Of a stretch of 64,000 nucleotides of DNA, positions 1 through 62,158 are shown piece after piece; position 1 is the first letter of the stretch; the number at the start of each line of letters is the position of its first letter. Source of the DNA: Ignavibacteriaceae bacterium (GTDB lineage: Bacteria; Bacteroidota; Ignavibacteria; Ignavibacteriales; Ignavibacteriaceae); the NCBI GenBank assembly GCA_041739035.1, contig JBGSOQ010000062.1, positions 44,775-108,774 on the forward strand, given 5' to 3'. The notes below the pieces were generated by a model. The model had not been told where the DNA came from. It worked only from the letters and a program-made list of their open reading frames with translations, and did not search any database. A program made the translations under genes and the position numbers.

Positions 1-813
1 CTGTAAGTCTTTTGGACCATCAAAACTAACTTTATCAAGATTCCAAAAAATATCGGTATTTGATGTTAAATAATTTCCTACATATGCAGAAACAGATCCT
101 TCAAATTTTTGTGAACCTTCCTGAGTTACAATATTAACAACCCCGGAAAGTGCCTGACCGTATTCTGCATTAAATGTACCGCTTATAACCTCTAATTGTC
201 TAACAGAGTTATTTTCAATTTGAAATGAATTTCTACCATCAAAAACATTATTGATTGGGATACCATCAACAAGGTATGCAACTTCATTATCTCTTCCACC
301 TCTAAAGTGGCCGCCAACAACACCAGCTTGCAGATTAATTACCTGACTAAGATTATCAACAGGCATCATTTTAATTTCTTCTGATCCCACTATAGCTGAT
401 GATGAAGTTAAGTCATTGATTATCATTGGTTTCTCTGCCTGTACAACTACTTCGCCAAGCCTTACAGCTTCAGAAACCATTTCGACATTAACATCCGTGG
501 TCAAGTCTATTTTAACGCTTACCTTTTCAATAAATACTTTGTTATATCCAACTGCACTAACAATTACTGTGTAACTGCCGGGGGGAATGTTATTTATATA
601 ATATTCACCTTCAATATCTGCAGCGGCACCAAAATAAGTACCATCAACTATAACATTTGCACCAACAATCGGTTCTCCCGTGTCTTTATCAATAATTTTT
701 CCTCTTATCTTACCGGTTGTTCCTGCAAATGAAAAATCACTTATCATTAATACAGCAATTAATAGGCTTAAAAGTGTATAACAAATTTTATGTTTTGTAA
801 AAAGTCTCAACAT
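1..813 (-). CDS. TonB-dependent receptor, N-terminal part (CarboxypepD_reg-like domain + plug); gene continues past the left window edge
   Basis: Absent from the ORF track because it is open at the window edge. Minus-strand translation from the ATG at 813-811 gives MLRLFTKHKICYTLLSLLIAVLMISDFSFAGTTGKIRGKIIDKDTGEPIVGANVIVDG...PPGSYTVIVSAVGYNK, then plug-like ...MPVDNLSQVINLQAGVV...LEVISGTFNAEYGQALSGVVNIVTQEG. Clear paralogue of the N-terminus of 53818..56553. Confidence 0.8.
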   Translation of the reverse strand, partial: MLRLFTKHKICYTLLSLLIAVLMISDFSFAGTTGKIRGKIIDKDTGEPIVGANVIVDGTYFGAAADIEGEYYINNIPPGSYTVIVSAVGYNKVFIEKVSVKIDLTTDVNVEMVSEAVRLGEVVVQAEKPMIINDLTSSSAIVGSEEIKMMPVDNLSQVINLQAGVVGGHFRGGRDNEVAYLVDGIPINNVFDGRNSFQIENNSVRQLEVISGTFNAEYGQALSGVVNIVTQEGSQKFEGSVSAYVGNYLTSNTDIFWNLDKVSFDGPKDLQ

Positions 814-31376: not shown

Positions 31377-31385
31377 TAAAAAGAC

Positions 31386-31474
31386 TGTCATTGAGAGGAT
31401 TCCTCGACGAATCAATCTTTTAACGGTTTTAGATTGCTTCACTCGACTCCGCCGTGGCGGATCGTTCGCAGTGA
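31386..31474. repeat. REP/MITE-like GC-rich palindromic intergenic element (GTCATT...AGATTGCTTC class)
   Basis: TGTCATTGAGAGGATTCCTCGACGAATCAATCT ... AGATTGCTTCACTCGACTCCGCCGTGGCGGATCGTTCGCAGTGA. Arms GAATCAATCT / AGATTGCTTC are complementary at 9 of 10 positions. Internal CCGCC-GGCGG hairpin. GC content stands out from the AT-rich spacer. Confidence 0.5.
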
Positions 31475-31493
31475 ATTAAACAAAAGGTAAAAT

Positions 31494-32333: not shown

Positions 32334-32348
32334 TTATGAAATTCCAAA

Positions 32349-33119: not shown

Positions 33120-33275
33120 AAATTGTAGAGAGAATCAAATCTTTATTTAATCGAAGTTGGACTTATCAAACTGAAACTATAATCATCACAAAAAAACAAT
33201 GTCCGCATTGTGCAAGCAGAGAGATGTTTGTTTTTAATGACACTCCAAAAATTAAAACCAAAATTGGTGATTCAA

Positions 33276-46410: not shown

Positions 46411-48045
46411 ATGAAAAAAGTTTACTTAACAGTATTTTATTTATTTTTATCAGCAGTTCAATACTCTCAAACAATTTCCGTTTCAGGAAATATTAGAAAT
46501 GTTACAACTAACTCCCCGATCGAAGGCGCAAAAGTACAAATCAAAAACATATCCAATGGAATGATTGATTCTGTATTCTCCGATTTAATAGGAAATTGGC
46601 AGTATGATATAGCAACATCTGTTGAAGATGATATTAATTATCTACCAACTAGCTTAGAAGTGATGCAAAATTTTCCTAACCCGTTTAATCCATCTACTAA
46701 AATTGGATTTTTAATTCCCATCGATGAAAATGTTTCTATTTCTGTTCACAATATTCTTGGTGAGCTGGTCGATGTTAAAAGTTCATTTCTTACTAAAGGT
46801 AATTATGTTGTTGATTGGTGCAGTAAAGGAAGTGCAGGAGTATATTTTTACACCATTACCTATGGAAATCAATCCATAACAAAAAAAATGATTCAGCTTG
46901 ATGGCGGTAATGGCATTGGTCTTGGAGAAATTAGATCAGGGATATCAAGTACAGCTAGTAAGAATAATACAATACCATTATATAATATTGAAATTGTTAT
47001 TAATAAATTTTCATATGCGGCTGATACTACTTTAGCAGATATTGCCGGCGGAGAAAACTTTTCAACTTTTCTTCAAACTGTTCACTCAAAATACACTTTG
47101 ATTGATTTACACAACGATGTTCTTGAAGTTATGGTAGGTGATCCAAGTTACCATCTTACAGATTTTCATACTTACAATCACACCGATATCCCGAGATTGC
47201 AGCAAGGCGGAGTTGATATTCAGTTCTTTTCAATTTGGGTAAGTCCTACTTCTTATACTAATTATTTTGATCAAGCACTTGTAATGCGTGATTTATTTTA
47301 TTCAGAGCTTGCCGCAAACACTTTAACGATTGAGCAAGCAACAACAATAGATCAGTCTCTGCAAATAAACGAGCAAAATAAAATTGCAGCAGTTATTGGC
47401 GTTGAAGGTGGACATCATATTGAGGAAAGTATTGATAAACTTGTGCAGTTGTATAATGCTGGAATGAGATATTTAACAATCACCTGGAATAACAGTGTAA
47501 GCTGGGCAATCTCCGCAGCCGATAGCCGATCTACAACTCAAGGATTGAATATTTTTGGGCGACAGATTATTAGAACATTGGATTCTCTTGGCGTGATCAT
47601 TGATGTTTCGCATACTGGGATAAAAACAATTCAGGATATTTTACAGGTAACTAATAATCCAATAGTAGCTACTCACTCAGGTGCAAGAGCAATAAGAAAT
47701 CACACAAGAAATTTATATGATGATCAAATCCAGGCAATCGCGAATACTGGGGGCGTAATTGGAATCGTATTTTATCCACCATTTCTGGTAAATCCTACTC
47801 CCGCTTATATTAGTGATGTAGTCGCACATATCGATCATATAGTAAACTTAGTTGGGACAGATTTTGTTGCTATAGGTTCAGATTTTGACGGAATTGGAAC
47901 GAATGTAGTAGTAGGGTTAGAAGATGTTTCTAAATACCCTGATTTAACTTTAGCATTACTTGAGCATGGATATACCGAATTAGAAGTTGCAAAGTTTTTA
48001 GGTGGAAATTTTAAGAGAGTTTTTGAACAAGTTTGTGGTAACTAA
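46411..48045 (+). CDS. Membrane dipeptidase (peptidase M19) fused behind an N-terminal CarboxypepD_reg-like domain and an internal T9SS-CTD-like domain
   Basis: 544 aa. Signal peptide. ISVSGNIRNVTTNSPIEGAKVQIKN. Internal MQNFPNPFNPSTKIGF...GVYFYTITYGNQSITKKMIQL (aa ~83-163). M19 motifs LIDLHNDVLE, GVEGGHHI, RYLTITWNNS, IIDVSHTG, VATHSGARAI, AIGSDFDGI. Confidence 0.85.
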   Translation: MKKVYLTVFYLFLSAVQYSQTISVSGNIRNVTTNSPIEGAKVQIKNISNGMIDSVFSDLIGNWQYDIATSVEDDINYLPTSLEVMQNFPNPFNPSTKIGFLIPIDENVSISVHNILGELVDVKSSFLTKGNYVVDWCSKGSAGVYFYTITYGNQSITKKMIQLDGGNGIGLGEIRSGISSTASKNNTIPLYNIEIVINKFSYAADTTLADIAGGENFSTFLQTVHSKYTLIDLHNDVLEVMVGDPSYHLTDFHTYNHTDIPRLQQGGVDIQFFSIWVSPTSYTNYFDQALVMRDLFYSELAANTLTIEQATTIDQSLQINEQNKIAAVIGVEGGHHIEESIDKLVQLYNAGMRYLTITWNNSVSWAISAADSRSTTQGLNIFGRQIIRTLDSLGVIIDVSHTGIKTIQDILQVTNNPIVATHSGARAIRNHTRNLYDDQIQAIANTGGVIGIVFYPPFLVNPTPAYISDVVAHIDHIVNLVGTDFVAIGSDFDGIGTNVVVGLEDVSKYPDLTLALLEHGYTELEVAKFLGGNFKRVFEQVCGN

Positions 48046-48047
48046 AA

Positions 48048-49148
48048 TTATTTAACCAGCATCATCTTTTTATTTTCTCTAAAAATATTCTTTCCCTTTG
48101 CTGATTGAACATTTAGTGAATAAATATAAACACCTGATGGTAATTCATCAGCAAAAAATAATTCGTGGTAAATTCCCTCACTTCGTTCTTCTTCAACTAA
48201 AGTAGCAATTTCACTTCCTAGTAAATCATAAATTTTTAGTTGCACATAACTTCTTTGCGGTATTTCAAACCTTATAGATGTGGAAGGGTTGAACGGATTA
48301 GGATAATTTTGTGAAAGACTAAAATTATTTACCTCAACTTCATTCTCAGCAATACCGGTTAGTGGATCAGCATTCACAACCTGCCCAGCATAAACAGTAA
48401 CAACTCTTGTGTAACCCATTGATGGTGCTGAAACAGTGTAAGTTCCGGGCTTAACATCACCAATGGCATAATTTTCATTATAAAAATCATCTGAGCCAAT
48501 TTTGGTATCTGCAAATAAATAGGTTAGGGAGTAACCATAAGTTGTGTAAGGTGGTCTTGGTTTTGGATCGGGAGTAATGTTAACTCTCGTTTCATCGGGT
48601 GCATTAGGCACTCTGCCATAAATTGCACCCATTCCCGTTATGCTGCACCAGAGTTCAGCATTTCTTTTATTACGTAAACCGCTGCTTTGTGATCCCTTTC
48701 GGATTTCAAAATGTAAATGGGCACCTGTTGAGTAGCCAGTATTTCCTGAAAGCGCAATTGGCTGGCCTTTAATTACTGCTTGATTAACTGCAACAAAGGG
48801 TCGAGTTAAATGTCCATAAAGAAAATAGTAGAATGAGTTGGTCCAATAACTTTTAATGAAGATATAATTACCGGCACCGTTTGGTTCATATCCTCCAAAA
48901 GCACCTGTATCGGTTGGGTTATATCCAACAAAAGAAACGATGCCATCTGTAGCTGAGTAAACTGTATCCCATCGAACAAGAATATCTATTCCGTTATGTG
49001 CATTACCAGGATTAGAAATACTAGGTTCACCATAAAGATAACTACCATTGGTTTGGATATTATTGGGCACAGGTCTGTCGATTCGAAAATTCTGAGCGTG
49101 ATTAAAGAGAAACGGTGAGAGAAACAAAATTGTAAATAATATTCTCAT
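48048..49148 (-). CDS. M23 (LytM-type) metallopeptidase with T9SS sorting domain
   Basis: 366 aa. HNGIDI and GAHLHFEI zinc motifs. Tail NYPNPFNPSTSIRF...GVYIYSLNVQSAKGKNIFRENKKMMLVK. Confidence 0.88.
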   Translation of the reverse strand: MRILFTILFLSPFLFNHAQNFRIDRPVPNNIQTNGSYLYGEPSISNPGNAHNGIDILVRWDTVYSATDGIVSFVGYNPTDTGAFGGYEPNGAGNYIFIKSYWTNSFYYFLYGHLTRPFVAVNQAVIKGQPIALSGNTGYSTGAHLHFEIRKGSQSSGLRNKRNAELWCSITGMGAIYGRVPNAPDETRVNITPDPKPRPPYTTYGYSLTYLFADTKIGSDDFYNENYAIGDVKPGTYTVSAPSMGYTRVVTVYAGQVVNADPLTGIAENEVEVNNFSLSQNYPNPFNPSTSIRFEIPQRSYVQLKIYDLLGSEIATLVEEERSEGIYHELFFADELPSGVYIYSLNVQSAKGKNIFRENKKMMLVK

Positions 49149-49279: not shown

Positions 49280-50287
49280 CTAAAAATTAATGCCAACAGA
49301 AAAATAATGTATCTCAGTCAATCGACCGAAATCCTGATAAGCATAGTCGAGTTTTACTTTTATTAGATCTACAATTCTGTAATACAAACCAAAACCGAGT
49401 GTCAATCCTTTTTCAGAATCTTTCTCGAACAATGAATTGTAACCAGCTCTAACATGAATTATTTCATTCCAGGCATATTCTAATCCTGTGTTAAGATATT
49501 CCGTATGATCATTTGGATGAATTGCATCTAGTCCTAAAGTTAAACGAGAAGTTCCTTCTTTAATTACGTCGGCAGATATTCCAAATCTAAATAAAAGCGG
49601 AAGATCAAATTTGTCTAATTCAATATTAGAGTTAATCAAATTACTGCCGCCTGCTCCTGAAGGAAATACTACAGTAGCATCTCTACCGGAAAGCTGCATC
49701 TTTGTGCCGAAGTTTGAAATACTTGCAGCAAGTCTTAATTCGTTTAATACCGGAATTTTATACAGCGTTCCGATATCAATCGCAAGTCCTGTAGCATTCA
49801 TATTCCACAGATTTTCACTTATATACTTTAAATTAAACCCAATCGTAAAATTTTCTGTAAGAAATCTGGAATAGTTTAATCCAAGTACTAAAGTATTGTA
49901 GTCAAAAAATTCACCGGTGCCTTCCGGATTTTCAATTGTTCTAACTGCCATTTCATCCATAGAAAGAACTGAAACAAATGCACCAACGGTTCCTAAACCG
50001 GATAAGTTAGTTGCATAGGCGGCAAAGTCATGTCTAACATCAGCGTACAAAGCTGTATGATTAAAAAATGCTTCGTTAGAGACAATATTAGCCGTTCCAC
50101 TTGGATTCCAGTATATAGCAGTGATGTCGTCTGAAATAGCAGTAAATGCACCACCCATTCCTATAGCTCTTGGACCAACATTAAATTTTAGAACCTGAGT
50201 TGCTGTTGTTCCTGTTTTTGTAGTCTGAGCAAACAAAACTGTGGAGCAAATACAAGCAGCTAAAATCATTAATAAATATTTATTCAT
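49280..50287 (-). CDS. PorV/PorQ-family outer-membrane beta-barrel protein (T9SS-associated)
   Basis: About 335 aa with a signal peptide. Family-typical N-terminal motif GPRAIGMGGAFTAISDDITAIYWNPSG. C-terminal FSVGINF. Start at ATG 50287 with an AGGAG RBS. Confidence 0.75.
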   Translation of the reverse strand: MNKYLLMILAACICSTVLFAQTTKTGTTATQVLKFNVGPRAIGMGGAFTAISDDITAIYWNPSGTANIVSNEAFFNHTALYADVRHDFAAYATNLSGLGTVGAFVSVLSMDEMAVRTIENPEGTGEFFDYNTLVLGLNYSRFLTENFTIGFNLKYISENLWNMNATGLAIDIGTLYKIPVLNELRLAASISNFGTKMQLSGRDATVVFPSGAGGSNLINSNIELDKFDLPLLFRFGISADVIKEGTSRLTLGLDAIHPNDHTEYLNTGLEYAWNEIIHVRAGYNSLFEKDSEKGLTLGFGLYYRIVDLIKVKLDYAYQDFGRLTEIHYFSVGINF

Positions 50288-50364
50288 AAAAATTCTCCTG
50301 ATCAAACTCTATATTATTCATATTTCCTAAAGTCACCCATAGGGGGATTTAGGGGGCTCTTTTT

Positions 50365-53300
50365 TTATTTAATTAGTGCAAACTTTATTATTTTTTCTCC
50401 AATACCCGGTGCATCAATATGCGCAAGGTAAACTCCGTACGCTACACTAAAACCGTCTTGGTTTAATAGATTCCAGAACTCTCTTCCGTTATCCACCCCT
50501 GATTCATGCTCAATTGAAGTAACCAGTTCACCGCTAAGAGTATATATTCTGATTGTACACTGCATTGGTAGATTTTCAAAATATATTCTTCTTTCGCCGC
50601 GATTTTGTCCTGATAATTTATTTGCCGGTTCAATTTCATTTGCACCAACGTAGGGATTTGGAACTACATAAATATTATCCAGATTAGAAGATGCAAGTTG
50701 ATTATCAACAAATCCTGCTTTTGTCTGAAGTGTGAAAACATCTGCTTTGCTAAATGGACGAGTTGTGTACATCAAATAAGCATCACCAGGATTTGGCTGA
50801 ACAGAATCAGTCTCTGTTACACGCGCTGCAGTAAAACCCCATGATAATGTATCTGTACCAACTCCGGCAGCGCCAGGTAAAAAGAAAATAATCTCATCTC
50901 CACGAGTCCATGCAGAATCATTAACAGCTTTTTCTTCAAGAAGCGTAACAATCGGTATAGGAATTCCTGTGGAAACTTCTTCAACTTTATATTTAACAGG
51001 GATATCTATAAGAACTGGAGGAACTCGCTTCTTTGCAGTAGAAATATTTTGATCAGAGAAAGTAATTATATAATCACCTGCATATAATTTTTTACGGTTT
51101 CCTATCGAAGATATCTGCACGGCAACTGGAATATTCAAATCAGGATCAGACCATTTAGATAATATGCTATTAAAAGTTAAAGAGGAATAATCATTTACTG
51201 TTAACAAAACTCCATCAAAAATAGGATTGGAATCTTCACCTTTAAGCGCTGTGCTCTGATATACTGAGTAGCTCTTAAAAGTAATAAAGTATTCTGTAGC
51301 TTCGAGCATAGAACTGTTATCAGTTTTTTTAATCGCTCCTTTTTCAAAATTTAATTCATAATCAATGTTCAATTGATAAACTGCTCCTGCAGCATCTTTA
51401 ACCTGCAAATTGGCATCATTAATAATGTTTCCCTTTGAAAGGCTGGTAAATTTGTTGCCATATAAATAGAACGATTCAGTAGAAGATTTTTCTCCGAGCA
51501 CAGAGTAATTCTTTGCCAGAACATTTCCTTCTGCCGTATATAAAGTATCCTTAAATGTTAGAGTATAGTTTTCATCCTTAACTTCAAGATCATTCAGTAT
51601 ATTAAACTCTACAAAGCCATTTCCATAACCGTTAACCTGAGAAACATCGGTAAGCTCTTGAATGGTTGGCTTATCATATCCGGAAGCTCTTGGACCCGGA
51701 ATTGCCTGAACAGTATTATCAGCAAAAGTAAGAAGACTTGTTATAGGGTCTGAAGAAATTTTCTTACTTGTTTCGGATGGTGGAATTCCAAGAGAATCAC
51801 CATGATCATATGCAACAACAGCATAATAATAAGTTTGTCCGTTTCTAACTTCATTCGAATCAACGAATGAATGACGAAGACCGGAATTAACACCCAAATA
51901 ATAACTTATTCCCCTTCCCTGAAAAGGAACGGGATGAAATCCACGCCAGTCATTATTTAAATCCCACTTTGCTTCAAATCCATCAACACCTTTTAATGGT
52001 TCATACAAAAATTTTGAACCACGCCCATCTGTTATGTTTTGTATGTCTGCAAAATCAGGACGAGTGCTTCTATAAATAACATAGCCTTCAAAATCTTTTC
52101 CTGTAATAGGATCTAAACTTTCTTCAGAACTTGTATCCCAATACAAGGTAACTTTTTTATCATCGGGTACAGCAGTTACTTTTGGAAGACTAGGTGGTTT
52201 AAAGAACTGATAATTTTTATTATAAATATCCTGCACTGTTTCTGCAGTCAATAATAAATCATCAAGATCTTCGCCGAACAGAAATGCCATTGAGATTCGC
52301 TTAGTTTCACCTGGTGCTAATGAGATATGACCAGAACCATAAATAAATACTATATCTTCATCATTTGTTATTTCACTAAAACTACCCGGTTGAATTGCAT
52401 TCCAAACATCTTCATCATATGCAATTCTCAAATCAGTAGCCCATTGAGAACTTTTAAAACTTGTAAGACCGATTTGATCTGCCTCATCTAAATCAGTGTA
52501 TTCAAAATTAGGTTCACCGGGTTGCAGCGGATCGGGTCTTCCATCAGCTAATCTTAGTCCTGCTGTAGGAACTCCATCTCCCTCACCAAAATCTCCTGTA
52601 CCCGGAATTCCATCAACACCTACATCATTTGTTTCAGGATTCCAATCACCATCATTATCAATACCATCATCCTGTCTTTCATCAATCATTCCATCACCGT
52701 CATTGTCAATTCCATCAAAACCATTGCCGGGACTTTCAAGAAACTTGCATCCTAAATAACCAAGTTCTCTTCCCTGGTCTCCAATTCCATCTGGATCAAA
52801 AAAGTAAACCATATTTCTTGCATAAAGCGGTATTGTAGAATCATATGGAGCAATAAAAAGTCCGTTATCATCATCATTATCTTCACCGCCAATATCAGGA
52901 TCCCCATAAATACCAAAGACAACACTATCAAGAGGTGTGTCACTTACATTTGTAACAGACCAAACAAAAAATATTGCATTTGCAGCAAGTGAATTACTCC
53001 ACTGAAACGCACGCGCATCAATCTGAACACCTAACCCTTGCCGGCTGGGATCACCAGAAAACGGAAAGTAATTAAATTCTTTGTTATCTCTATCATCCAT
53101 TGCAAAGAAAGCTTCCAGATCCGCATTATTTTCTCCCTGAACTAAATATCCGGGCCAAACATATTCGCCTAATGTTTCATTATACCAATCTCTAGGCCAG
53201 CTATCCGGCTTGCCATCACGGTCAGAATCAAACGATGGATTAGAGGCAATGTATGGCTGATTAGGATCCGCATAACCAGGTAAGGGCTGCCATTGCCACT

Positions 53301-53796
53301 TCAATCCGGTTGCAGGATCAATTTCTCTTAATCCTGGTCTGTCCCAATCATTCATACCATCGGTAATGATGTGAATTCTATTACCAGATGTATCTACAAC
53401 CGATGCACCCACTATCGGACAGAATTGAAAAATATAAGGAGCATCGCGCCAGATAAGATTTGTAATTTCTCTTATGCCGCCAAAACCTGGTCCAATACCG
53501 CCATAGTTTTCAATTTCAACAGCAATATTATTTCCATTCATAAAAAACGATTTACGATCTTCATTGGCAGTATTCTTTTTTAAATAGTTTTGCTGCGAAT
53601 ACTTTAAAGAGCTCGAATTTGAAGGATTAGAACTAACTGGTGCAGTTAACAATTTATTATATAGAAAGTCTTTTATTGCCTGGTGTTCAATTTGTCTTCT
53701 CTGCTTAACTTCTTCTGGCTGTGCATTAATTGTTGCAGAAAGAAAAAGTAAAATAAGAACAACAGTGATTAAGTATTTTAATTTTATATTCAACAT
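50365..53796 (-). CDS. Large secreted protein with acidic Ca-binding-type repeats, Fn3-like domain and a divergent T9SS-type C-terminal domain
   Basis: 1143 aa with a signal peptide. DGIDNDGDGMIDERQDDGIDNDGDWNPETNDVGVDGIPG. Fn3-like PSLPKVTAVPDDKKVTLYWD...GYVIYRS. C-terminus VVPNPYVGANE...CTIRIYTLSGELV...GVYLAHIDAPGIGEKIIKFALIK. GGAG RBS. Starts 21 nt after the receptor stop. Confidence 0.85.
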   Translation of the reverse strand: MLNIKLKYLITVVLILLFLSATINAQPEEVKQRRQIEHQAIKDFLYNKLLTAPVSSNPSNSSSLKYSQQNYLKKNTANEDRKSFFMNGNNIAVEIENYGGIGPGFGGIREITNLIWRDAPYIFQFCPIVGASVVDTSGNRIHIITDGMNDWDRPGLREIDPATGLKWQWQPLPGYADPNQPYIASNPSFDSDRDGKPDSWPRDWYNETLGEYVWPGYLVQGENNADLEAFFAMDDRDNKEFNYFPFSGDPSRQGLGVQIDARAFQWSNSLAANAIFFVWSVTNVSDTPLDSVVFGIYGDPDIGGEDNDDDNGLFIAPYDSTIPLYARNMVYFFDPDGIGDQGRELGYLGCKFLESPGNGFDGIDNDGDGMIDERQDDGIDNDGDWNPETNDVGVDGIPGTGDFGEGDGVPTAGLRLADGRPDPLQPGEPNFEYTDLDEADQIGLTSFKSSQWATDLRIAYDEDVWNAIQPGSFSEITNDEDIVFIYGSGHISLAPGETKRISMAFLFGEDLDDLLLTAETVQDIYNKNYQFFKPPSLPKVTAVPDDKKVTLYWDTSSEESLDPITGKDFEGYVIYRSTRPDFADIQNITDGRGSKFLYEPLKGVDGFEAKWDLNNDWRGFHPVPFQGRGISYYLGVNSGLRHSFVDSNEVRNGQTYYYAVVAYDHGDSLGIPPSETSKKISSDPITSLLTFADNTVQAIPGPRASGYDKPTIQELTDVSQVNGYGNGFVEFNILNDLEVKDENYTLTFKDTLYTAEGNVLAKNYSVLGEKSSTESFYLYGNKFTSLSKGNIINDANLQVKDAAGAVYQLNIDYELNFEKGAIKKTDNSSMLEATEYFITFKSYSVYQSTALKGEDSNPIFDGVLLTVNDYSSLTFNSILSKWSDPDLNIPVAVQISSIGNRKKLYAGDYIITFSDQNISTAKKRVPPVLIDIPVKYKVEEVSTGIPIPIVTLLEEKAVNDSAWTRGDEIIFFLPGAAGVGTDTLSWGFTAARVTETDSVQPNPGDAYLMYTTRPFSKADVFTLQTKAGFVDNQLASSNLDNIYVVPNPYVGANEIEPANKLSGQNRGERRIYFENLPMQCTIRIYTLSGELVTSIEHESGVDNGREFWNLLNQDGFSVAYGVYLAHIDAPGIGEKIIKFALIK

Positions 53797-53817
53797 TTCA
53801 TTACTCCATAAATTTCA

Positions 53818-56553
53818 TTATATCTCTAACGTAAGACCAAATCTAACTTCTCTTGGTGCAGAATAGTAGTTTGGTCTGTTAAAGTACTCGGTTGCAGATT
53901 TAATCGCAGGATATTCTTCTGAGATTGCGTTAGTAGCCTGTGGTCCACCTTTCGTTTCTTCAAGTGAATAAGTTGCTCTGCCTGTATCGTCATAGACAAA
54001 AGATTCATTCTTTGTATCAAACAGATTATAAACTTTTAGGAAAATAGTTAATGTGGTACTGTAAAGGATAAAAGATTTATCAATCAGTAAATCAACATTT
54101 GTTTGTAATGGTTTTCTACCGCTGTTAGTTTTTAAATAAATCTGCTGCTCATAAAGCTGAGGTGAATAAGGCAGACCGGTGCCAAGATTACCAACTATTG
54201 TAACTGTCCAATCTCTATCTCCTCCAAATGTTATTACTCCATTTATTGTATGTGATTGATCCCAATTTAGAGGTACAGGAATTTTTTCACTTTGACGTCC
54301 GGATTGAAGATCGATAAAAAAAGCGTCCGCACTAACTTCATTTCCCTCAGCAACCTGGAAAGTATAATCCAATGAAGCACCAAATAAATCATCCGGCATT
54401 TTTCTCTTTGTTAGAGAAAATGTAATACCCTTAATGTTGCCGTAGTCTTTGTTAACATATTTTTGATAAATAGAATTACTGCTAATTCGTATTTGTTCTA
54501 TTGCAAGCAAATCACGAACATCTTTATAAAATCCGGTAACATTAAATGCTAATGTTCCCGTTAACTGCTGCTGCAATCCCAATTCATAAGTAACAGTTTT
54601 TTCGGGATCAAGATTTGCATTACCATAAACAGGCAAAGCAGCAATGTCCTCAAACTCGGGGTTGGTATATAAAAATCTAAATGGCGGTAACTGATAAAAA
54701 TGGCCGTAAGAAAAATGTATTATCCCTTCGTCTGTTATTGGAAATGAAATTCCGAGTCTTGGGCTTAATGTAAACTTACCATCCGCATCAACAAGATTTT
54801 GTGTGGGTGCAAATGGATCAGGTGCATATAAAGCGTTTGCCTTAAAGTAATCTAATCTTAAGCCGGCATTTAGTATCATACTCGTAAATTCCATCTTATC
54901 CTGCAGATAACCAGAAAATTGCTGAGGTGAACGTGAGTAAATATCTATTGAACCTCTTTGATCAACAGGATTAGGAATTGTTGGAGTTAAATAGTTGCTT
55001 CTGTTTCTTAGTACCTCAAAGAATACAAAATCCATTGTATCCCATTTACCTTTTGCTCCAAACTTAACTTCGTGCTGATTTGTTACCTGACTTGTAATAT
55101 CAAACTTAACTTCTGAAGTGTAAGAACGTTGATAAAAATGCTGAGGCTGTGTTCCGCCGGATACAAATGTGTAACTGCTGTAACTATTACTTTTGTCATC
55201 TGGCTGATATCTTGGATCTGCCTGAAGTCCATCTAAACTCATACTAGGGTTGAATGAAACTTCACTGCCGGAGGCATTGAGTAATGGATATAAATATCTT
55301 TTAAAATCATAAATATTGTAAGATCCCTTTAATGAGAAGAAAGTACTATTACTAACCGCGTGCCTGTATTCCAACGAATTTATTAAACCCCAGGTCATCT
55401 GATTATAATTTGCATCTGGATTATATTTATAATTGTGCGAGTATGATTGGTACTCGGAATTTGAATATACAACATCATAATTAATTTTAATTGTTGGTAT
55501 AGGTTTGAAAGTAAGTTTTGCGGTTGTATTTAAATCTATACTTGGGTTCATAGATACAGTAGCGCCATCACCGGTTTCGGCTATATATAAAACATTTGCC
55601 TGAAGCGGATCTCTAGAAAGTGAATCAAAAACTGTGTGTTGTCTAATCCCGTAAAGATAGCCTTTGTCATTATTATATCTGCCGGAAAAAAAGAAACTAA
55701 AATTATCTTCAAGCAATGGGATTGGTCCGCCGAATGTTCCTTCAACTACCTGATTATTGATTGGACTAAAATCATCAACATTATAAAAAACATCTGTTGA
55801 AGTACTTACATAATCACCCGTATAGTATGAAAAAGTACCTGTGTATTTTGATCCGCCTTCCCTGGTAATAGTGTTAACTACACCACTTAATGCATTACCA
55901 TACTCTGCATTAAATGTACCGCTTACTACCGAAACTTCCTGTACTGCATTTGTTGATATCTGAACAGTTCTTCCAAAATCATACGGATTGATTGCAGAAA
56001 CACCATTTACGTTATAAGCAATTTCAGTAGATCGACCGCCTCGAATGTGAAGCTCACCGCCAGCGCCTTTAGTAATACCGGCTTGCAAAGAAAGTATCTC
56101 GCTGATACTCTCTACAGGTAAAGTTTTGATTTGTGAATCATCAATATTTGTTTGAGAAGATGTTAAATCTTTTCTAACCATTGGCCTCGTTGCCTGCACA
56201 ATAATCGTTTCAAGCCCTATTGCTTCAGTGGAAAGCTGCATATCTATTGTTGTGGTAAAATCACTCGATACTCTTACATCGGTTACAATTTTTTTCTGAT
56301 AACCAACGCCGCTGAATACCAAAGAATATAACCCCGGTTCAATATTGTTGATAATATACGTTCCATCAATACCGGTCGCAGCACCCATCGTTGTATTTTC
56401 AACAAGTACATTTATTCCGATGAGTTCTTCACCCGTTTGGGCATCTATAACTTTACCGGCAATTTTACCTGTGCCTGCTGCATATAATTGTGACTGAGTA
56501 AAAAGTAGAAGTGAAAAAAGAATTGAAAAAGAAGAAAGTAAATATTTTTTCAT
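53818..56553 (-). CDS. TonB-dependent receptor (CarboxypepD_reg + plug + 22-strand-type barrel)
   Basis: About 911 aa. AGTGKIAGKVIDAQTGEELIGINVLV...GLYSLVFSGVGYQK. Plug segment LPVESISEILSLQAGIT...VSGTFNAEYGNALSGVVNTITREG. Long barrel ending REVRFGLTLEI. Start at ATG 56553 (MKKYLL, AAGAGG RBS). Confidence 0.9.
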   Translation of the reverse strand: MKKYLLSSFSILFSLLLFTQSQLYAAGTGKIAGKVIDAQTGEELIGINVLVENTTMGAATGIDGTYIINNIEPGLYSLVFSGVGYQKKIVTDVRVSSDFTTTIDMQLSTEAIGLETIIVQATRPMVRKDLTSSQTNIDDSQIKTLPVESISEILSLQAGITKGAGGELHIRGGRSTEIAYNVNGVSAINPYDFGRTVQISTNAVQEVSVVSGTFNAEYGNALSGVVNTITREGGSKYTGTFSYYTGDYVSTSTDVFYNVDDFSPINNQVVEGTFGGPIPLLEDNFSFFFSGRYNNDKGYLYGIRQHTVFDSLSRDPLQANVLYIAETGDGATVSMNPSIDLNTTAKLTFKPIPTIKINYDVVYSNSEYQSYSHNYKYNPDANYNQMTWGLINSLEYRHAVSNSTFFSLKGSYNIYDFKRYLYPLLNASGSEVSFNPSMSLDGLQADPRYQPDDKSNSYSSYTFVSGGTQPQHFYQRSYTSEVKFDITSQVTNQHEVKFGAKGKWDTMDFVFFEVLRNRSNYLTPTIPNPVDQRGSIDIYSRSPQQFSGYLQDKMEFTSMILNAGLRLDYFKANALYAPDPFAPTQNLVDADGKFTLSPRLGISFPITDEGIIHFSYGHFYQLPPFRFLYTNPEFEDIAALPVYGNANLDPEKTVTYELGLQQQLTGTLAFNVTGFYKDVRDLLAIEQIRISSNSIYQKYVNKDYGNIKGITFSLTKRKMPDDLFGASLDYTFQVAEGNEVSADAFFIDLQSGRQSEKIPVPLNWDQSHTINGVITFGGDRDWTVTIVGNLGTGLPYSPQLYEQQIYLKTNSGRKPLQTNVDLLIDKSFILYSTTLTIFLKVYNLFDTKNESFVYDDTGRATYSLEETKGGPQATNAISEEYPAIKSATEYFNRPNYYSAPREVRFGLTLEI

Positions 56554-56750: not shown

Positions 56751-56774
56751 CAAATCATAAACAATAAAACAAAA

Positions 56775-56836
56775 GGGTTATCAGAATACAATTCAATCAG
56801 CTAAAGCTGAGCAAAAAGGAAATATTCTGATAACCC
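56775..56836 (-). terminator. Long-loop hairpin downstream of 56855..58516, probable terminator
   Basis: 14-bp perfect stem GGGTTATCAGAATA (56775-56788) / TATTCTGATAACCC (56823-56836). TTTTGTTTT follows on the minus strand. The 34-nt loop contains a small CAGCT/AGCTG hairpin. Confidence 0.5.
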
Positions 56837-56854
56837 TAAATAACATAAATTAAA

Positions 56855-58516
56855 CTATTTAAGTAACTGCATCTTTCTGGAAACGGTATTTGCACCCGCA
56901 GTCATACGATAAACATAAGTTCCGCTTGCAAGATTTGAAGCATCAAATTTAACATTGTAAGAACCAGCACCCATAAATTGATTGCTAATAAGAACTGCAA
57001 CTTCTCTTCCGAGAGCGTCATAAATTCTTAAATCAATATTTGCTGCTTCAGTAATTCCAAACTTAATCTGTGTAGATGGGTTAAATGGATTTGGATAATT
57101 CTGATCTACAAAAAATTGAGAAGGAACAACATCATTTTCAAGTTCAACTGAAACAGGAGTGGTTACTAAATCAAGAACTACAATTGGCATTGGAGTATCT
57201 AATGGATTACCTCTTGAGTAACCTTGTGTGTAAAGAACTTCATCTGCTGCATCACCATCAATATTTCCAACATATACTTCCATCTCTCCATTATTAGTCC
57301 AGTATGCTGAATCAAGGACTGAAGAAATATAGTTTGCAGGATTAGTAATATCACCACCTTGATATTCAACTCTGAATACAGGAACTTTTGCCGTATTATT
57401 AGCTTCATAACGTGAACCAATGATAAAATCAAGATTTCCATCAGCATCTATGTCACCAAAAGCGGATGCCATTAATCTAACAGCACCAAGAGATTCAAGG
57501 TCAACAATTTCAGTTGAAACTAAAGTATCAGCAACTTGTTGTAATAACCAAACTCTTGCTCCTTGCCCAACAGCATTGCCAAGCCATTCAGCAACCAAAA
57601 TTTCTTTTGTTCCATCACCATCAAGATCAACAACTTGGGAACCTTTGAAAGATGAATTTCCACCAGCAATACCGCTCTGTCCTGGTAGTGATTCCCAAAC
57701 GCCGCCTACATATCTAAGTCCCCATACTTTACTGCCATCAGTTAAGTTACCATCAAATAAATATATATAATTATTAAGAACTGCTAGATCCCATTTATTT
57801 CCGGTACCTGATAGAAAAGCATCACCTACTCCGGAAAATTCTATAGTCCAGGTTTCTAATCCGCCGCCATTGTCAGGAATGTCATCAACAGAAAGAACGC
57901 CAACGTGCCAATCTCCTGCACCTGCAGCACGATCAGCAAAAATAATTTCGTCTGTGCCATCGCCATCAACATCTGAAATTACTAATCTAACCGGTCTTAC
58001 ATTAAAACTAGGAGCAGTAACAATAGAAGTTTTTGCATTAGGTTCAAATCCTCCAAATCCGTCATCAACACCCATACCTTCTCCACTACCGGGATATTCA
58101 TAAACTAAAATTCTTGCGGGATTTAAATCAGTACCAATATTGTTAACTGGCGCCCAGTATAATTCCATTTTTCCATCTTTATCAATATCACCATATGCCA
58201 AAGCTGGCCAGGTATTTTGTAATTCAACAGGAGCAACAGCTCCCCAAACACTATCCCAGGCAGATGTGACAGGATTCCATTCAAATTTGTAAATTCGTGG
58301 TGTTAACTCATAAGGTTCGTCAATCATATTAGTATTTACGGCATAAATTTCTGGTAGACCATCTCCGTCAAAATCTACACCCGCAACAACTCCTCCAAAG
58401 CCTCTTTCAAGACCTGCTGGATCCTTTATCTCAGCAGTACGCGGAAAAGTTTGAGCCTGAGTATAAGAAATTGATAAAAGTAAAAAGATAGTAAGAAAAG
58501 TGAAGAGTCGGTTCAT
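56855..58516 (-). CDS. FG-GAP/VCBS-repeat beta-propeller protein with T9SS sorting domain
   Basis: 553 aa. Repeated Ca-binding loops DFDGDGLPEI, DIDKDGKMEL, DVDGDGTDEI, DLDGDGTKEI, DIDADGNLDF, NIDGDAADEV. Tail NYPNPFNPSTQIKF...GTYVYRMTAGANTVSRKMQLLK. GGAGG RBS. Confidence 0.88.
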   Translation of the reverse strand: MNRLFTFLTIFLLLSISYTQAQTFPRTAEIKDPAGLERGFGGVVAGVDFDGDGLPEIYAVNTNMIDEPYELTPRIYKFEWNPVTSAWDSVWGAVAPVELQNTWPALAYGDIDKDGKMELYWAPVNNIGTDLNPARILVYEYPGSGEGMGVDDGFGGFEPNAKTSIVTAPSFNVRPVRLVISDVDGDGTDEIIFADRAAGAGDWHVGVLSVDDIPDNGGGLETWTIEFSGVGDAFLSGTGNKWDLAVLNNYIYLFDGNLTDGSKVWGLRYVGGVWESLPGQSGIAGGNSSFKGSQVVDLDGDGTKEILVAEWLGNAVGQGARVWLLQQVADTLVSTEIVDLESLGAVRLMASAFGDIDADGNLDFIIGSRYEANNTAKVPVFRVEYQGGDITNPANYISSVLDSAYWTNNGEMEVYVGNIDGDAADEVLYTQGYSRGNPLDTPMPIVVLDLVTTPVSVELENDVVPSQFFVDQNYPNPFNPSTQIKFGITEAANIDLRIYDALGREVAVLISNQFMGAGSYNVKFDASNLASGTYVYRMTAGANTVSRKMQLLK

Positions 58517-58716: not shown

Positions 58717-59646
58717 TCATTCTTCAATCGCTTTGCGTACAAATCCATTTGCAAGTTTTAATCTTTCTTTTGCAGTCTTCAAATCCACATTTGCTTTTAG
58801 CATAACAAGCGCCGTTTTAACATGACCATTAGCATTGTCTAAAGCCATCCCTGCTTCATCGTAATTAAGTCCTGTAATTGTCATAACAATTTTTTTTGAC
58901 CGCTCCACAAGTTTTTTATTTGTCATCTGCAGATCGATCATCATATTTTCATAAACTTTTCCAAGCCTAATCATAGATGCTGTTGTTAGCATATTTAAAA
59001 CTAACTTTTGTGCAGTTCCGCTTTTCATTCTTGTCGAACCCATCACTACTTCCGGTCCAACATAAGGACAAATGGCAACATCTACTTCTTCAATATCAAA
59101 ATCTTTTCTTGGATTTGTTGTAACGTACAAAGTTTTAGCCCCAAGCTGCTTTGCTTTTTTTACTGCACCAACTACATAAGGAGTTCTTCTGCTCGCAGCA
59201 ATTCCACACACCACATCTTTCGAAGTAACATTTGCGGCAACAACTTCGCTTGCACCTTTTTCCTCTTTATCCTCAGCACCTTCCTGTGCCCGGAACATCG
59301 CTTCTTTTCCACCGGCAATATATCCTTCTATCATTCCATAAGGAGTTCCAAAAGTTGGAGGACACTCGGAAGCATCAACAACTCCTAATCTTCCACTTGT
59401 TCCCGCACCGAAGTATAAAAGTCTTCCGCCGTTCTTTAATGAGCTAACGATTATTTCAACTGCTTGTTCGATATATGGTAATTCTTGTTCAACCGCATAT
59501 GGCACAAGTTTATCTTCATCATTTATAATTTTTATTATTTCTGCTGTAGATTTTGCATCTATTTCCATCGAATGTGGATTGCGCTGTTCTGTTGGCAGTT
59601 TACTTATCTCTTCAAAAAATGTGTTAGTTTCTGGTGGTTTGCTCAT
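58717..59646 (-). CDS. murQ: N-acetylmuramic acid 6-phosphate etherase
   Basis: 309 aa. TEQRNPHSMEID and the SIS-domain motif FGAGTSGRLGVVDASECPPTFG. C-terminal pattern typical of MurQ. Confidence 0.9.
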   Translation of the reverse strand: MSKPPETNTFFEEISKLPTEQRNPHSMEIDAKSTAEIIKIINDEDKLVPYAVEQELPYIEQAVEIIVSSLKNGGRLLYFGAGTSGRLGVVDASECPPTFGTPYGMIEGYIAGGKEAMFRAQEGAEDKEEKGASEVVAANVTSKDVVCGIAASRRTPYVVGAVKKAKQLGAKTLYVTTNPRKDFDIEEVDVAICPYVGPEVVMGSTRMKSGTAQKLVLNMLTTASMIRLGKVYENMMIDLQMTNKKLVERSKKIVMTITGLNYDEAGMALDNANGHVKTALVMLKANVDLKTAKERLKLANGFVRKAIEE

Positions 59647-59824: not shown

Positions 59825-62158
59825 ATGATGTCAAAAGTTGAACAATATTACCTGGCACAATCAAAAAAAGAATTAGTATACGTACCCACAGAAAAAATTC
59901 CTGTACTCCAGGTTGCAAACTTTCCTGAATTAGGAAAGATGACAGCATTAAGATTTATAGAGTGGATGCAGCAAAATCCTGGTGGAGTAGTTTCTCTGCC
60001 CACCGGCAAAACACCTGAACATTTTATCAAATGGGTTGCCTACTTTTTGAAAAATTGGGGAAAAGCAGAAGTTCTAGAGGCATTAAAAAAAGTTGATCTT
60101 GATCCCGCAATTAAACCTGATGCCAGCAGTTTACGTTTTGTTCAGATAGATGAATTTTATCCTATAGATTCTCATCAGCACAATAGTTTTTATTACTACA
60201 TACAAAAATATTATTTCAGCAATTGGGGATTGGATAATAAAAAAGCCTTGTTGATGAATATTAATGAAATTCCCAGAGCAAATAATTTATCGTTTGCAGA
60301 AATTTTTCCAGATGAAAATATCGATCTTTCATTAAGAACACGTTGGGCTTCTACAACTCAGGAAAGACATCAAAAACAAACTATAGAACTTGTCGATCAG
60401 TTTTGCACAGATTATGAAAAGAAGATTCGCGACATGGGCGGGATTGGATTCTTCCTTGGCGGTATTGGTCCTGATGGGCACATTGGTTTTAATGTAATGG
60501 GCAGCGATCATTACTCAACAACAAGATTAATTCAAACTAATTATGAAACACAAGCTGCCGCCGCCACAGATCTTGGCGGAATTGAAGTTGCAAAGAAAAG
60601 ACTAGTAATAACGATTGGATTGGATACCATTACTTATAATCCCGATGCAACAGCAATTATAATTGCCGCAGGTGAAGCCAAAGGAAATATTGTAAGAGAT
60701 TCAATTCAAACTTCTATTTCAAATAAATATCCGGCAACAGTTTTGCAAAGATTACCAAATGCACGTTTTTATTTAACTAATGGTGCCGCTTTTAGATTAG
60801 TTGAGAGAAGATACCACGATGTAATTAATGAAGACGATATTTCTCACGCATCGATTGAGAGAGCAGTTGTTAATCTTTGTTTAGATAAAAATAAATCATT
60901 ATTGGATTTAAGTATTGAAGATTATAATTCTAATAAACTTACTAAATTGATATTAGAACGGACGAATAAATCTCCTAAGCAAATTGGTGATGAGATTCAT
61001 AAATCAATTATTGAAAGATTTGAAAGAGGAATGCTGCCCGTTTCTGATCAAACAATTCTTCACACCGGGCCGCACCATGATGATATACCTCTTGGTTATT
61101 TACCATATATTAATCATTTAGTACGAGACTCAAGTAACAGTCATCACTTTGTAACTATGACAAGCGGATTTACTGCTGTTACTAATGCTTATATGTTGGA
61201 TTTATTGAATGATTTAAATTCATTTTTGGCTCATCCGGATTTCAGATCACGCTTTACACAGCGATACTTTGATCCTGAATTTAAAGAAGGTAAAGATCGC
61301 GATATTCATCTTTATCTTGATGGACTAGCAGAGCACAGCCGAACTATTAGAAAAGAAGCTGTTTCGCGAAGACTGCTTAGAAACATGATTGAAATTTATG
61401 AAGAAGACAACATCAAATATCTGGAGGATAGAGTTGATGAGTTAATTAACTATTTCAAAACTCAATATCCGGGTAAAAAAGATATTCCTCATGTCCAAAA
61501 ACTTAAAGGAATGATGCGTGAATGGGAAGAGGAACTTGTCTGGGCTTTCTTCGGATTTAATACCAGCTCAGTTTCACACATGCGCCTTGGTTTTTATCAG
61601 GGTGATATCTTTACCGAAAACCCTGAAATGGATAGAGACGTAATTCCAATTTTAAATTTATTGAAGAAAATAAAACCAACAGTTGTTACAGTTGCTCTTG
61701 ATCCTGAAGGCAGCGGACCCGATACACACTACAAAGTATTGCAGGCAACTGCAGAAGCGTTAAAACTTTATGAGAAAGAGACAGGAATAAATAATATAAA
61801 AGTATGGGGATATAGAAATGTTTGGTATCGTTTCCATCCCGCTGAAGCAAATATTTTTATTCCCGTTAGTTTAAACTCAATGGCAATAATGGAAAATACT
61901 TTTCTAAATAGTTATGGCTCACAGCGAGCCGCAAGCTTTCCAAGCTGGGAATATGATGGTCCATTTTCGCGTCTTGCTCAGCGAATTCAGGTTGAGCAGT
62001 ATCAAACAATAAGATTATGCCTGGGTAAAGATTATTTCTTAAAACATTCATACCCAAGAGTACAGGCCGCATATGGAATGGTCTATCTTAAAGAATTATC
62101 TCAGGAAGAGTTCTATGCACATTCATCTGAACTAAGAAAGTTAACAGAGAATTATTAA
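59825..62158 (+). CDS. Long-form glucosamine-6-phosphate deaminase-like protein (NagB domain fused to an LmbE/PIG-L-like deacetylase-type domain)
   Basis: 777 aa. N-terminal NagB motifs (SLPTGKTP, VQIDEFYPI, GGIGPDGHIGFN). From about aa 400, HTGPHHDDIPLGY (AHPDD-type LmbE motif) and LDPEGSGPDTH. Confidence 0.8.
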   Translation: MMSKVEQYYLAQSKKELVYVPTEKIPVLQVANFPELGKMTALRFIEWMQQNPGGVVSLPTGKTPEHFIKWVAYFLKNWGKAEVLEALKKVDLDPAIKPDASSLRFVQIDEFYPIDSHQHNSFYYYIQKYYFSNWGLDNKKALLMNINEIPRANNLSFAEIFPDENIDLSLRTRWASTTQERHQKQTIELVDQFCTDYEKKIRDMGGIGFFLGGIGPDGHIGFNVMGSDHYSTTRLIQTNYETQAAAATDLGGIEVAKKRLVITIGLDTITYNPDATAIIIAAGEAKGNIVRDSIQTSISNKYPATVLQRLPNARFYLTNGAAFRLVERRYHDVINEDDISHASIERAVVNLCLDKNKSLLDLSIEDYNSNKLTKLILERTNKSPKQIGDEIHKSIIERFERGMLPVSDQTILHTGPHHDDIPLGYLPYINHLVRDSSNSHHFVTMTSGFTAVTNAYMLDLLNDLNSFLAHPDFRSRFTQRYFDPEFKEGKDRDIHLYLDGLAEHSRTIRKEAVSRRLLRNMIEIYEEDNIKYLEDRVDELINYFKTQYPGKKDIPHVQKLKGMMREWEEELVWAFFGFNTSSVSHMRLGFYQGDIFTENPEMDRDVIPILNLLKKIKPTVVTVALDPEGSGPDTHYKVLQATAEALKLYEKETGINNIKVWGYRNVWYRFHPAEANIFIPVSLNSMAIMENTFLNSYGSQRAASFPSWEYDGPFSRLAQRIQVEQYQTIRLCLGKDYFLKHSYPRVQAAYGMVYLKELSQEEFYAHSSELRKLTENY

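Follow-up and report, generated by a model that had tools for sequence, protein, structure and literature searches.

We analysed a stretch of 64,000 nucleotides from an Ignavibacteriaceae bacterium (NCBI GenBank assembly GCA_041739035.1, contig JBGSOQ010000062.1), hereafter the window, and concentrated on three adjacent genes on its minus strand. These encode a TonB-dependent receptor (53818..56553), a protein of 1143 amino acids (aa) from a large uncharacterised family, which we term the giant (50365..53796), and an outer-membrane barrel of the PorV/PorQ family (49280..50287). Judging from the sequences, we favour the reading, at a probability of roughly 45%, that this trio constitutes one outer-membrane module, which would capture an external polymer or its fragments and import them with power from TonB. 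The three genes are strictly coupled and whole trios are duplicated, and these facts fit such an import module, as do the conserved PorZ-like tail of the giant, the PorV-family barrel and the TonB-box motif of the receptor. The reading builds on the domains found, on homologies and predicted folds, and on synteny and the statistics of neighbouring genes. Should it hold, a peptidoglycan-derived glycan or muropeptide would be the leading candidate substrate, at about even odds. The parts are of known kinds, i.e., a TonB transporter, a PorV-family barrel and a type IX secretion system (T9SS) tail retained on a cognate barrel. Their combination into a unit of receptor, giant and PorV-family barrel was not found described in the searchable full-text literature, in line with an earlier note on this DNA that had not recognised the arrangement as a described system. 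There is a realistic chance that the trio represents a general, previously unrecognised machine within the FCB (Fibrobacteres-Chlorobi-Bacteroidetes) group.

The trio as a conserved gene unit

The three genes lie in the order receptor, giant and barrel. The receptor reads as 911 aa from an ATG at 56553 and the barrel as 335 aa from an ATG at 50287. In both open reading frames (ORFs) a TTG lies six codons upstream of the likely ATG, and mechanical calls thus add six residues to each protein (917 aa with an ORF to 56571 and 341 aa with an ORF to 50305, respectively). Homologues of 908-913 aa for the receptor and 335-337 aa for the barrel match the ATG starts, which are therefore the likely ones. 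With these starts, the ORF listing yields gaps of 21 and 77 nucleotides (nt) between the three same-strand genes, exactly as the earlier note had described.

Between the receptor and the FG-GAP repeat gene that directly precedes the trio, we read by eye a perfect 15-bp hairpin (AGGGTTATCAGAATA / TATTCTGATAACCCT) with a T-run on the minus strand (56765..56837). It is positioned just after the FG-GAP gene; its 34-nt loop is itself able to pair, and TTTTGTTTT follows. As this hairpin looks like a terminator, the trio probably forms its own transcription unit, separate from the FG-GAP gene. A scan for consensus promoters and terminators was uninformative, with counts at or below the shuffled expectation, and missed the hairpin because its loop exceeds 8 nt. 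No Rfam family reached its gathering score anywhere in the window, and thus no riboswitch points to a cofactor as the substrate.

We then considered 82 related loci, comprising the best 80 of at least 562 loci from a genome scan with a 27-sequence alignment and two further loci from look-ups. A tblastn search with the window proteins placed 89 copies of the giant in these loci. The receptor was found directly upstream of the giant in 77 of the 78 evaluable cases, and the barrel directly downstream in all 79. This arrangement is far beyond chance. The sole exception in gene order is a Calditrichota contig of 4.1 kb (L072:24-4118), on which a PorV-like barrel stands directly upstream of the giant with no receptor between them. 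Among the best 80 of the at least 562 scan loci, trios span Ignavibacteriota, Kryptoniota, Rhodothermales, Neomarinimicrobiota/Marinimicrobia, Calditrichota and KSB1. The synteny that the earlier note had proposed to examine therefore extends over at least five or six FCB phyla. A few other labels also occur among the loci (e.g., Paceibacterota, Victivallales and Acidobacteriota) and are probably binning or naming errors.

In seven loci, two trios stand side by side (L012, L040, L065, L068, L071, L079 and L080). The tandem layout is receptor-giant-barrel followed by receptor-giant, with or without a second barrel, and the two trios converge in L012. These paired trios indicate that the three genes duplicate as a unit. 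Furthermore, the assembled genome CAVVCO01 contains two unlinked trios (L041 and L056) whose giants are 60% and 36% identical to the window giant, and at least two old paralogue classes therefore exist. Divergence from the window copies co-varies among the three proteins, with Spearman coefficients of 0.92 for receptor and giant, 0.71 for giant and barrel and 0.76 for receptor and barrel, part of which reflects shared phylogeny. In many loci, the receptor and giant genes overlap or sit within about 20 nt of each other.

Domain architecture of the receptor, the giant and the barrel

Behind a signal peptide, the receptor has an N-terminal domain of the CarboxypepD_reg-like type, then a plug and a barrel. 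The order of these three domains, which had already been assigned in the earlier note, is borne out by three Pfam matches, namely CarbopepD_reg_2 (69.7 bits), Plug PF07715 (38.7 bits, cut-off 23.9) and TonB_dep_Rec_b-barrel PF00593 (100.5 bits, cut-off 27). Between the N-terminal domain and the plug, the window receptor carries the strand ETIIVQA. DTIVVTA is among the known TonB boxes, and on this basis ETIIVQA would be the TonB box of the receptor. Its consensus, (E/D)(E/T/A)(V/I)(V/I)V(Q/V/E/T)(A/G), is kept in all 69 aligned receptor homologues. Among solved structures, those nearest in sequence belong to ordinary TonB receptors and match in the plug region only.

An assignment of the receptor to the SusC/RagA family was rejected, as TIGR04056 yielded 68 bits against a cut-off of 368.25 and the match was limited to residues 36-183, i.e., the N-terminal domain. 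No SusD-like gene follows the receptor, the next gene being that of the giant. The earlier note was thus right that no SusD-like lipoprotein comes after it, and wrong in assuming that a receptor of this type normally pairs with one. Since the receptor is not SusC-type, the absence of SusD is unremarkable.

A second receptor of the same subfamily is represented by its N-terminus at the left edge of the window (1..813, minus strand), the rest of the gene and its downstream neighbours lying beyond the window. It had been proposed to be a paralogue, and it is indeed 43% identical to the trio receptor over 269 aa. Its identity to trio receptors of other phyla is 42-51% and about equal to all of them, and no clear orthologue stands out. 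Ahead of this gene lie those of a T9SS-tailed CBM9 protein (913-3519, minus strand) and of a sodium-solute symporter (3712-5340). An exact look-up with the 868-aa neighbouring protein retrieved no entry.

Outside its tail regions, the giant matched no Pfam or NCBIfam family, whether searched whole or in thirds (E up to 10). As a single protein it also gave no sequence match in the PDB, and a profile of 27 giants gave only a weak Fn3 match to 3mpc. Neither Pfam (2025) nor NCBIfam (June 2026) contains a curated model of this family, which is annotated as 'hypothetical' everywhere. It is a large family, with matches to 4366 clusters at 50% identity (E<=1e-3), 539 of them at E<=1e-30. In a 90%-clustered collection we found more than 3500 relatives, of which the top 120 are all at least 57% identical to the giant.

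To describe its architecture, we combined motifs with two AlphaFold2 (AF2) models. The model of the whole giant (27 sequences) reached a predicted local distance difference test score (pLDDT) of 75.3 and a predicted template modelling score (pTM) of 0.64, and that of residues 700-1143 (43 sequences) a pLDDT of 91.4 and a pTM of 0.81. The N-terminus is a Sec/type I signal peptide (residues 1-25; …TINA/QPEE) without a lipobox and is followed by a lineage-specific linker of about 50 residues (residues ~26-76). Residues 77-534 (52195..53568, minus strand) are predicted to form a beta-supersandwich of the galactose-mutarotase-like carbohydrate-binding type. Foldseek matched this part with probabilities of 0.97-1.0 to the N-terminal domains of GH94 phosphorylases, to the aldose-1-epimerase 3nre (TMt 0.42) and to the P1 domain of YidC (3blc; TMt 0.51). 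Inserted in the supersandwich are acidic loops of the DxDxDG type (residues 355-445; 52462..52734, minus strand; DGIDNDGDGMIDE..DGIDNDGDW...), and the acidic stretch DGIDNDGDGMIDERQDDGIDNDGDW is likewise present in the giant. The loops combine many invariant Asp, Glu and Gly residues with little predicted secondary structure and low pLDDT, and probably bind calcium. The Fn3-like module that follows (residues 535-700; 51697..52194, minus strand) is supported by the invariant motifs DFEGYxIYR and YYYAVxAYD, by the AF2 model and by fibronectin matches in Foldseek. Both the acidic repeats and the Fn3-like module had been noticed earlier, and these data uphold them. Residues 701-1035 (50692..51696, minus strand) are modelled as a stalk of Ig-like beta-sandwich domains, as judged by AF2 and Foldseek. 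The protein ends in a divergent, PorZ-like C-terminal domain (CTD) of the T9SS type (residues 1036-1143; 50368..50691, minus strand; VVPNPY...CTIRIYT..GELV...KFALIK).

The AF2 model of the whole giant is almost entirely beta, and hence does not contain a SusD fold. A SusD-like protein, whose fold the earlier note had named as a refuting case, was rejected also on account of the missing SusD Pfam match and the missing lipobox. A Foldseek search of the whole model against the PDB returned PorZ (5m11) first (E 1.2e-6), together with fibronectin and complement-type arrays. With residues 700-1143, PorZ 5m11 again ranked first (probability 1.0, 18% identity, 264 columns) and PorU was found with an E of about 6e-3; the remaining matches were only Ig/Fn3 arrays from adhesins, complement and Fn3 proteins. 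Conservation, calculated as the mean pairwise column identity over 27 giants from several phyla, is highest in the acidic loops (0.55), followed by the tail (0.49), the Fn3 module (0.45) and the two parts of the supersandwich (0.33), and is lowest in the stalk (0.20), with a value of 0.33 for the whole protein.

The tail of the giant deserves a closer look. Nine other proteins of the window match PF18962/TIGR04183 at their C-termini, and the giant tail differs from theirs, as the earlier note had pointed out; it misses both models. Against specific models, the last 101 residues scored 22.4 bits with PorZ, 15.9 with M6i, 14.2 with PorU and 13.4 with TIGR04183; these matches cover tail regions and lie far below the cut-offs. 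The tail region of the PorZ model matches the giant tail with an E of 3.5e-5. An hhalign comparison of 27 giant tails with the nine type A tails of the window gave a probability of 93.7% and an E of 2e-7 over the core strands, and on this alignment the giant tail is homologous to type A T9SS CTDs. PorU and PorZ retain their tails, bound to PorV and PorQ (review PMC10202324). The giant tail is among the best-conserved parts of the protein and therefore does not resemble a signal that is discarded after use; it suits a permanent interface between proteins, which suggests that it may be retained and not cut off.

The giant itself was considered as PorU and as PorZ, and both identities were rejected. 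With the PorU model NF033707 it scores 14.2 bits against 420, in the last ~100 residues only, and it lacks a Peptidase C25 domain. With the PorZ model NF052228 it scores 22.4 bits against 260, again in the tail only, and its AF2 model shows the supersandwich, Fn3 and Ig-like domains instead of beta-propellers. The giant is thus neither of the two proteins for which the earlier note had asked, and its similarity to PorZ is confined to the C-terminal region. A separate Peptidase_C25 gene of 1338 aa lies 8 kb downstream of the trio in the related locus L002.

The third protein matches the PorV/PorQ family model NF033709 over its full length (33-341) with 206.6 bits against a cut-off of 90, which confirms that the third gene encodes a 335-aa barrel of the PorV/PorQ type. 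It falls below the equivalog cut-offs of PorQ (NF033711; 94.8 of 220 bits), PorV (NF033710; 67.3 of 250 bits) and PorV2 (NF052325; 69.9 of 325 bits). By these scores, the barrel is a distinct PorV/PorQ subfamily, being neither PorV nor PorQ nor PorV2. A profile of twelve barrels from five phyla retrieved from the PDB only PorV of F. johnsoniae (6h3i_F, E 1.2e-19), and no FadL and no BAM chain at E<=10. The PorV family is known to have a FadL-like fold (PMC12578637).

Neighbouring genes and the candidate substrate

In the window, an M23 peptidoglycan endopeptidase with a T9SS tail (48048..49148, minus strand; Pfam Peptidase_M23 and Por_Secre_tail) is encoded immediately downstream of the barrel. 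Directly before the receptor comes the FG-GAP repeat protein, whose T9SS tail is of the canonical type A (56855..58516, minus strand; Pfam FG-GAP_3, FG-GAP and Por_Secre_tail). Farther out we found MurQ, the N-acetylmuramic acid 6-phosphate etherase (58717..59646, minus strand), which at 384.9 bits against the TIGR00274 cut-off of 302 is assigned at equivalog level. MurQ is adjoined by a 777-aa protein (59825..62158, plus strand) whose N-terminal part is NagB-like, i.e., resembles glucosamine-6-phosphate deaminase (NF002557, 221.7 bits, short of its cut-off of 384). The protein has no Pfam match at E<=1e-5 and about 300 further residues beyond the NagB-like part. On the other side lies an M19 membrane dipeptidase (46411..48045, plus strand; Pfam Peptidase_M19 and Por_Secre_tail). 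Its tail-like domain (residues 88-161; TIGR04183 41.6 bits) is internal, preceding the catalytic domain (residues 224-540) instead of standing at the C-terminus, and an architecture of CarboxypepD_reg, Por_Secre_tail and M19 was also called in L002. A dipeptide-epimerase-like protein of the enolase superfamily is found farther out in the window as well, as are MurQ, the NagB-like protein and M19.

A Pfam census of the two nearest ORFs on each side of the trio in the related loci covered 94 upstream and 106 downstream ORFs. FG-GAP proteins account for 36 of the upstream ORFs and GHL10 for four, and an FG-GAP protein is thus a frequent fourth gene of the trio cluster. Downstream, we counted Por_Secre_tail in 19 ORFs, Amidase_2 in 13, FG-GAP in five and M23 and M19 in three each, the others being heterogeneous. 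A tblastn search placed Amidase_2 after the barrel in 15 loci from Rhodothermales, Marinimicrobia and one Melioribacteraceae; in a sixteenth (L001) a small Amidase_2 is located upstream. M23 with a T9SS tail lies directly downstream of the barrel in the window and in four Ignavibacteria loci (L002, L003, L009 and L018), and GHL10 with a T9SS-type tail upstream of the trio in four loci. The Amidase_2 and GHL10 neighbours that we checked carry T9SS-type tails. As the neighbouring hydrolases bear such tails, they would act outside the cell. DigH of E. coli is a GHL10 member (453 bits) and degrades the denuded glycans left by amidases (PMC12288456).

Genes for amino-sugar catabolism recur in a similar manner. 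MurQ also adjoins the trio cluster in L008 and L009. The NagB-like protein adjoins MurQ in the window and in these two loci, and lies near the trio in L008, L009 and L032. An M19 dipeptidase is found near the trio in L002, L003, L004 and L018. In Kryptoniota, genes downstream of the trio encode a NagK-like kinase, a fusion protein and a sodium-solute symporter. The fusion, which joins a NagZ-like GH3 beta-N-acetylhexosaminidase to a PBP4B/AmpH-like beta-lactamase fold in 964 aa (L037:13602-16496 and L024:12503-15394), is positioned two genes downstream of the trio, between the kinase and the symporter. Four phyla thus place differing peptidoglycan-degrading or amino-sugar catabolic genes beside the same trio. 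This neighbourhood is a suggestive hint to the substrate of the trio. The recurrent peptidoglycan-hydrolase neighbourhood had not featured in the earlier note, and the trio is widespread rather than local.

Proposed mechanism, rival explanations and further features of the window

From these data we infer a secretion route, the retention of the tail, complex formation, a direction of transport and a substrate as follows. The giant would pass the inner membrane by Sec and be exported by the T9SS. Its T9SS-type tail would not be cleaved and would stay on the dedicated, adjacent PorV-family barrel, as PorZ does on PorQ and PorU on PorV, so that the barrel would hold the giant on the cell surface. 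The variable Ig-like stalk would carry the Fn3 module and a beta-supersandwich head, in which the highly conserved acidic loops probably bind calcium. The head would bind the ligand, which the adjacent TonB-dependent transporter, with its TonB-box-like strand, would import. If the substrate is peptidoglycan, the T9SS-secreted amidase, the M23 endopeptidase and the DigH-like GHL10 protein would release fragments from foreign or dead cells, and the MurQ, NagB-like, NagK-like and NagZ-like enzymes would then catabolise what is imported. The earlier note had already pictured a T9SS-exported giant held on its own barrel. The homology of the tail, PorZ as the top structural match, the conservation of the tail and the match of the barrel to PorV alone in the PDB speak for this part of the idea, and it was the SusD premise that did not stand.

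In its most specific form, the proposal describes an unrecognised multi-phylum machine, in which a T9SS-delivered capture protein keeps its tail on its own PorV paralogue beside a TonB transporter, and which would serve the FCB lineages outside Bacteroidia as a counterpart of SusCD that harvests the peptidoglycan of dead cells or prey by means of co-encoded T9SS hydrolases. We regard this complete version as possible but doubtful. If true, the import module would join two systems that are usually kept apart, in that a machine for TonB-dependent uptake would owe its surface half to type IX secretion and PorV-family barrels. FCB lineages outside Bacteroidia (Ignavibacteriota, Kryptoniota, Rhodothermales, Marinimicrobia, Calditrichota and KSB1) would then equip their transporters with surface partners without using surface lipoproteins. 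A function for the family of the giant, with its 4366 clusters, would annotate thousands of genes. Should peptidoglycan be the substrate, the trio would be a marker of the recycling of bacterial necromass in habitats in which these phyla abound, namely sediments, soils and the ocean interior.

The comparison to known systems places the trio between several of them. With PorZ-PorQ and PorU-PorV of Porphyromonas gingivalis it shares a T9SS-type CTD that is probably retained and a cognate barrel of the PorV/PorQ family, the two genes being adjacent in the trio, and PorZ is the best structural match of the tail region of the giant. However, the giant has neither the beta-propellers of PorZ nor the C25 peptidase of PorU, the trio barrel stays below the PorV and PorQ cut-offs, and the pair shares an operon with a TonB-dependent receptor and has several paralogues in each genome. 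The SprB-SprF type of cargo with a type B CTD (Gorasia 2022, as cited in PMC10202324) likewise sets a large surface protein beside its own anchoring barrel after type IX secretion, such type B cargo using cognate PorP-like barrels. The trio differs in that its barrel belongs to the PorV/PorQ and not the PorP/SprF family, the tail of the giant is akin to type A/PorZ and not to type B, and the unit includes a TonB receptor. The logic proposed here would be that of SusC/SusD, SusCDEF and BtuB-BtuG, with a surface ligand-binding partner beside a TonB-dependent transporter that has a CarboxypepD_reg-like N-terminal domain. In contrast to SusC/SusD, the trio receptor misses the SusC model by a wide distance (68 bits versus 368), and the giant is neither a lipoprotein nor alpha-helical and would be anchored through the T9SS and the barrel, not by a lipid. 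Peptidoglycan turnover, as known from the amidases and DigH of E. coli, from MurQ, NagZ and NagK and from the scavenging of MurNAc by Tannerella, involves the same kinds of genes (Amidase_2, M23, GHL10, MurQ and NagB-, NagK- and NagZ-like) that recur around the trio. The hydrolases beside the trio differ by their T9SS tails, and uptake would use a TonB transporter. No such peptidoglycan-scavenging system was found described in the searchable literature.

Several points weigh against the import module. FadL-like barrels are able to act as transporters themselves. The tail of the giant misses the curated T9SS models (TIGR04183 13.4 bits versus 23 for the isolated tail, and no PF18962 match), and the supersandwich is called from a model with a pLDDT of 75 and with query-normalised TM-scores that are low (0.15-0.18). 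By raw count, only about 25 of the 82 loci have peptidoglycan-related neighbours. Moreover, a second paralogue class in Ignavibacteria has no peptidoglycan neighbours, and its downstream genes are housekeeping genes. The 80 scan loci are the top-ranking ones among at least 562, and certain assembled genomes have doubtful taxon labels. Finally, the very high conservation and near-universal presence of the trio suit a housekeeping envelope machine equally well.

This last consideration leads to the main rival, an attachment or envelope function in the manner of PorZ and PorQ. Here, the giant and the barrel would form a lineage-specific T9SS attachment or accessory pair, which, like PorZ-PorQ in Porphyromonas, would deliver a surface glycolipid to the sortase or anchor cargo, and the receptor would be an associated envelope component. 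PorZ is both the best structural match of the giant and the best-scoring sequence model for its tail, the barrel scores highest with PorQ among the specific models (94.8 bits), T9SS cargo genes flank the trio, and the trio is deeply conserved and near-universal in the T9SS-bearing FCB lineages outside Bacteroidia. The likeness to PorZ is, however, confined to the tail region (264 columns at 18% identity), beta-propellers are absent, 22 bits compare to a cut-off of 260, and the barrel does not reach the 220 bits set for PorQ. It would be unusual for a core machine to occur as two to three paralogous trios in a genome and to be duplicated in tandem, and a receptor with a plug and a TonB-box motif, kept in 77 of 78 cases, would be left unexplained. 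We therefore consider this explanation unlikely, yet the strongest of the alternatives.

The other alternatives appear less likely than this main rival. The module might import another substrate, such as a different glycan, peptides, a metal chelate or a hydrophobic compound, possibly with the barrel as a FadL-type channel and with the hydrolase neighbours as incidental T9SS cargo. About 57 of the 82 loci indeed lack a peptidoglycan gene in their flanks, no ligand is known for the FG-GAP propeller that is the commonest neighbour, a CBM9 protein precedes the paralogous receptor at the left edge, and the FadL-like fold of the PorV family (PMC12578637) would be compatible with a channel. Such a substrate is nevertheless unlikely in our view, as two families of peptidoglycan hydrolases share the position downstream of the barrel in different phyla, three phyla have three different sets of genes for amino-sugar catabolism, neither a riboswitch nor another cofactor signal is found upstream, and the barrel profile matches PorV and not FadL.

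A receptor working outward is a further alternative. The Oar protein of Myxococcus is a CarboxypepD_reg TonB-dependent transporter that is required for secretion of the protease PopC. By analogy, the trio receptor might export the giant, which the barrel would then hold. The shared CarboxypepD_reg-plug-barrel architecture without SusD and the strict coupling of the receptor and giant genes, which in many loci overlap or are no more than about 20 nt apart, would agree with this. We judge it highly unlikely, as the tail of the giant is homologous to T9SS CTDs in genomes rich in T9SS cargo, a folded, all-beta protein of 1143 aa would be hard to thread through a 22-strand barrel, and no link of the receptor to Oar was seen in NCBIfam or the PDB. 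Even less credible is a role in outer-membrane protein assembly, perhaps of the receptor, with the giant and the barrel as relatives of the Bacteroidota BAM subunits BamH and BamG. In that pair, a FadL-like barrel holds an extracellular protein with a carbohydrate-binding fold, and the pair is kept across FCB phyla; BamM, in addition, has a calcium-structured domain without secondary structure (PMC12611786; PMC12578637). The trio resembles this in combining a FadL-like barrel with a presumably extracellular protein of a carbohydrate-binding-type fold that are jointly kept across FCB phyla. There is, however, no detectable homology and no link to BamA. BamH is a lipoprotein whereas the giant lacks a lipobox, the profile of the giant matches no PDB chain apart from the weak Fn3 match, and duplicated trios speak against an essential single-copy machine. 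An identity with BamG and BamH was rejected on the barrel profile search, which found PorV (E 1.2e-19) and no BAM chain at E<=10.

Two further features of the window, apart from the trio, were noted. A gene at 38575-40671 (minus strand) encodes a multihaem cytochrome with MtrC/MtrF-like and cytochrome c7 domains and a canonical T9SS tail; it would leave the cell by type IX secretion and serve in extracellular electron transfer. A beta-glucan utilisation cluster at 24803-34499 (plus strand) comprises an MFS transporter, a ROK kinase, two GH3 enzymes, GH16, an esterase and GH5. It contains no outer-membrane receptor gene and stands out by a higher G+C content (0.37-0.39) and a reversed GC skew.

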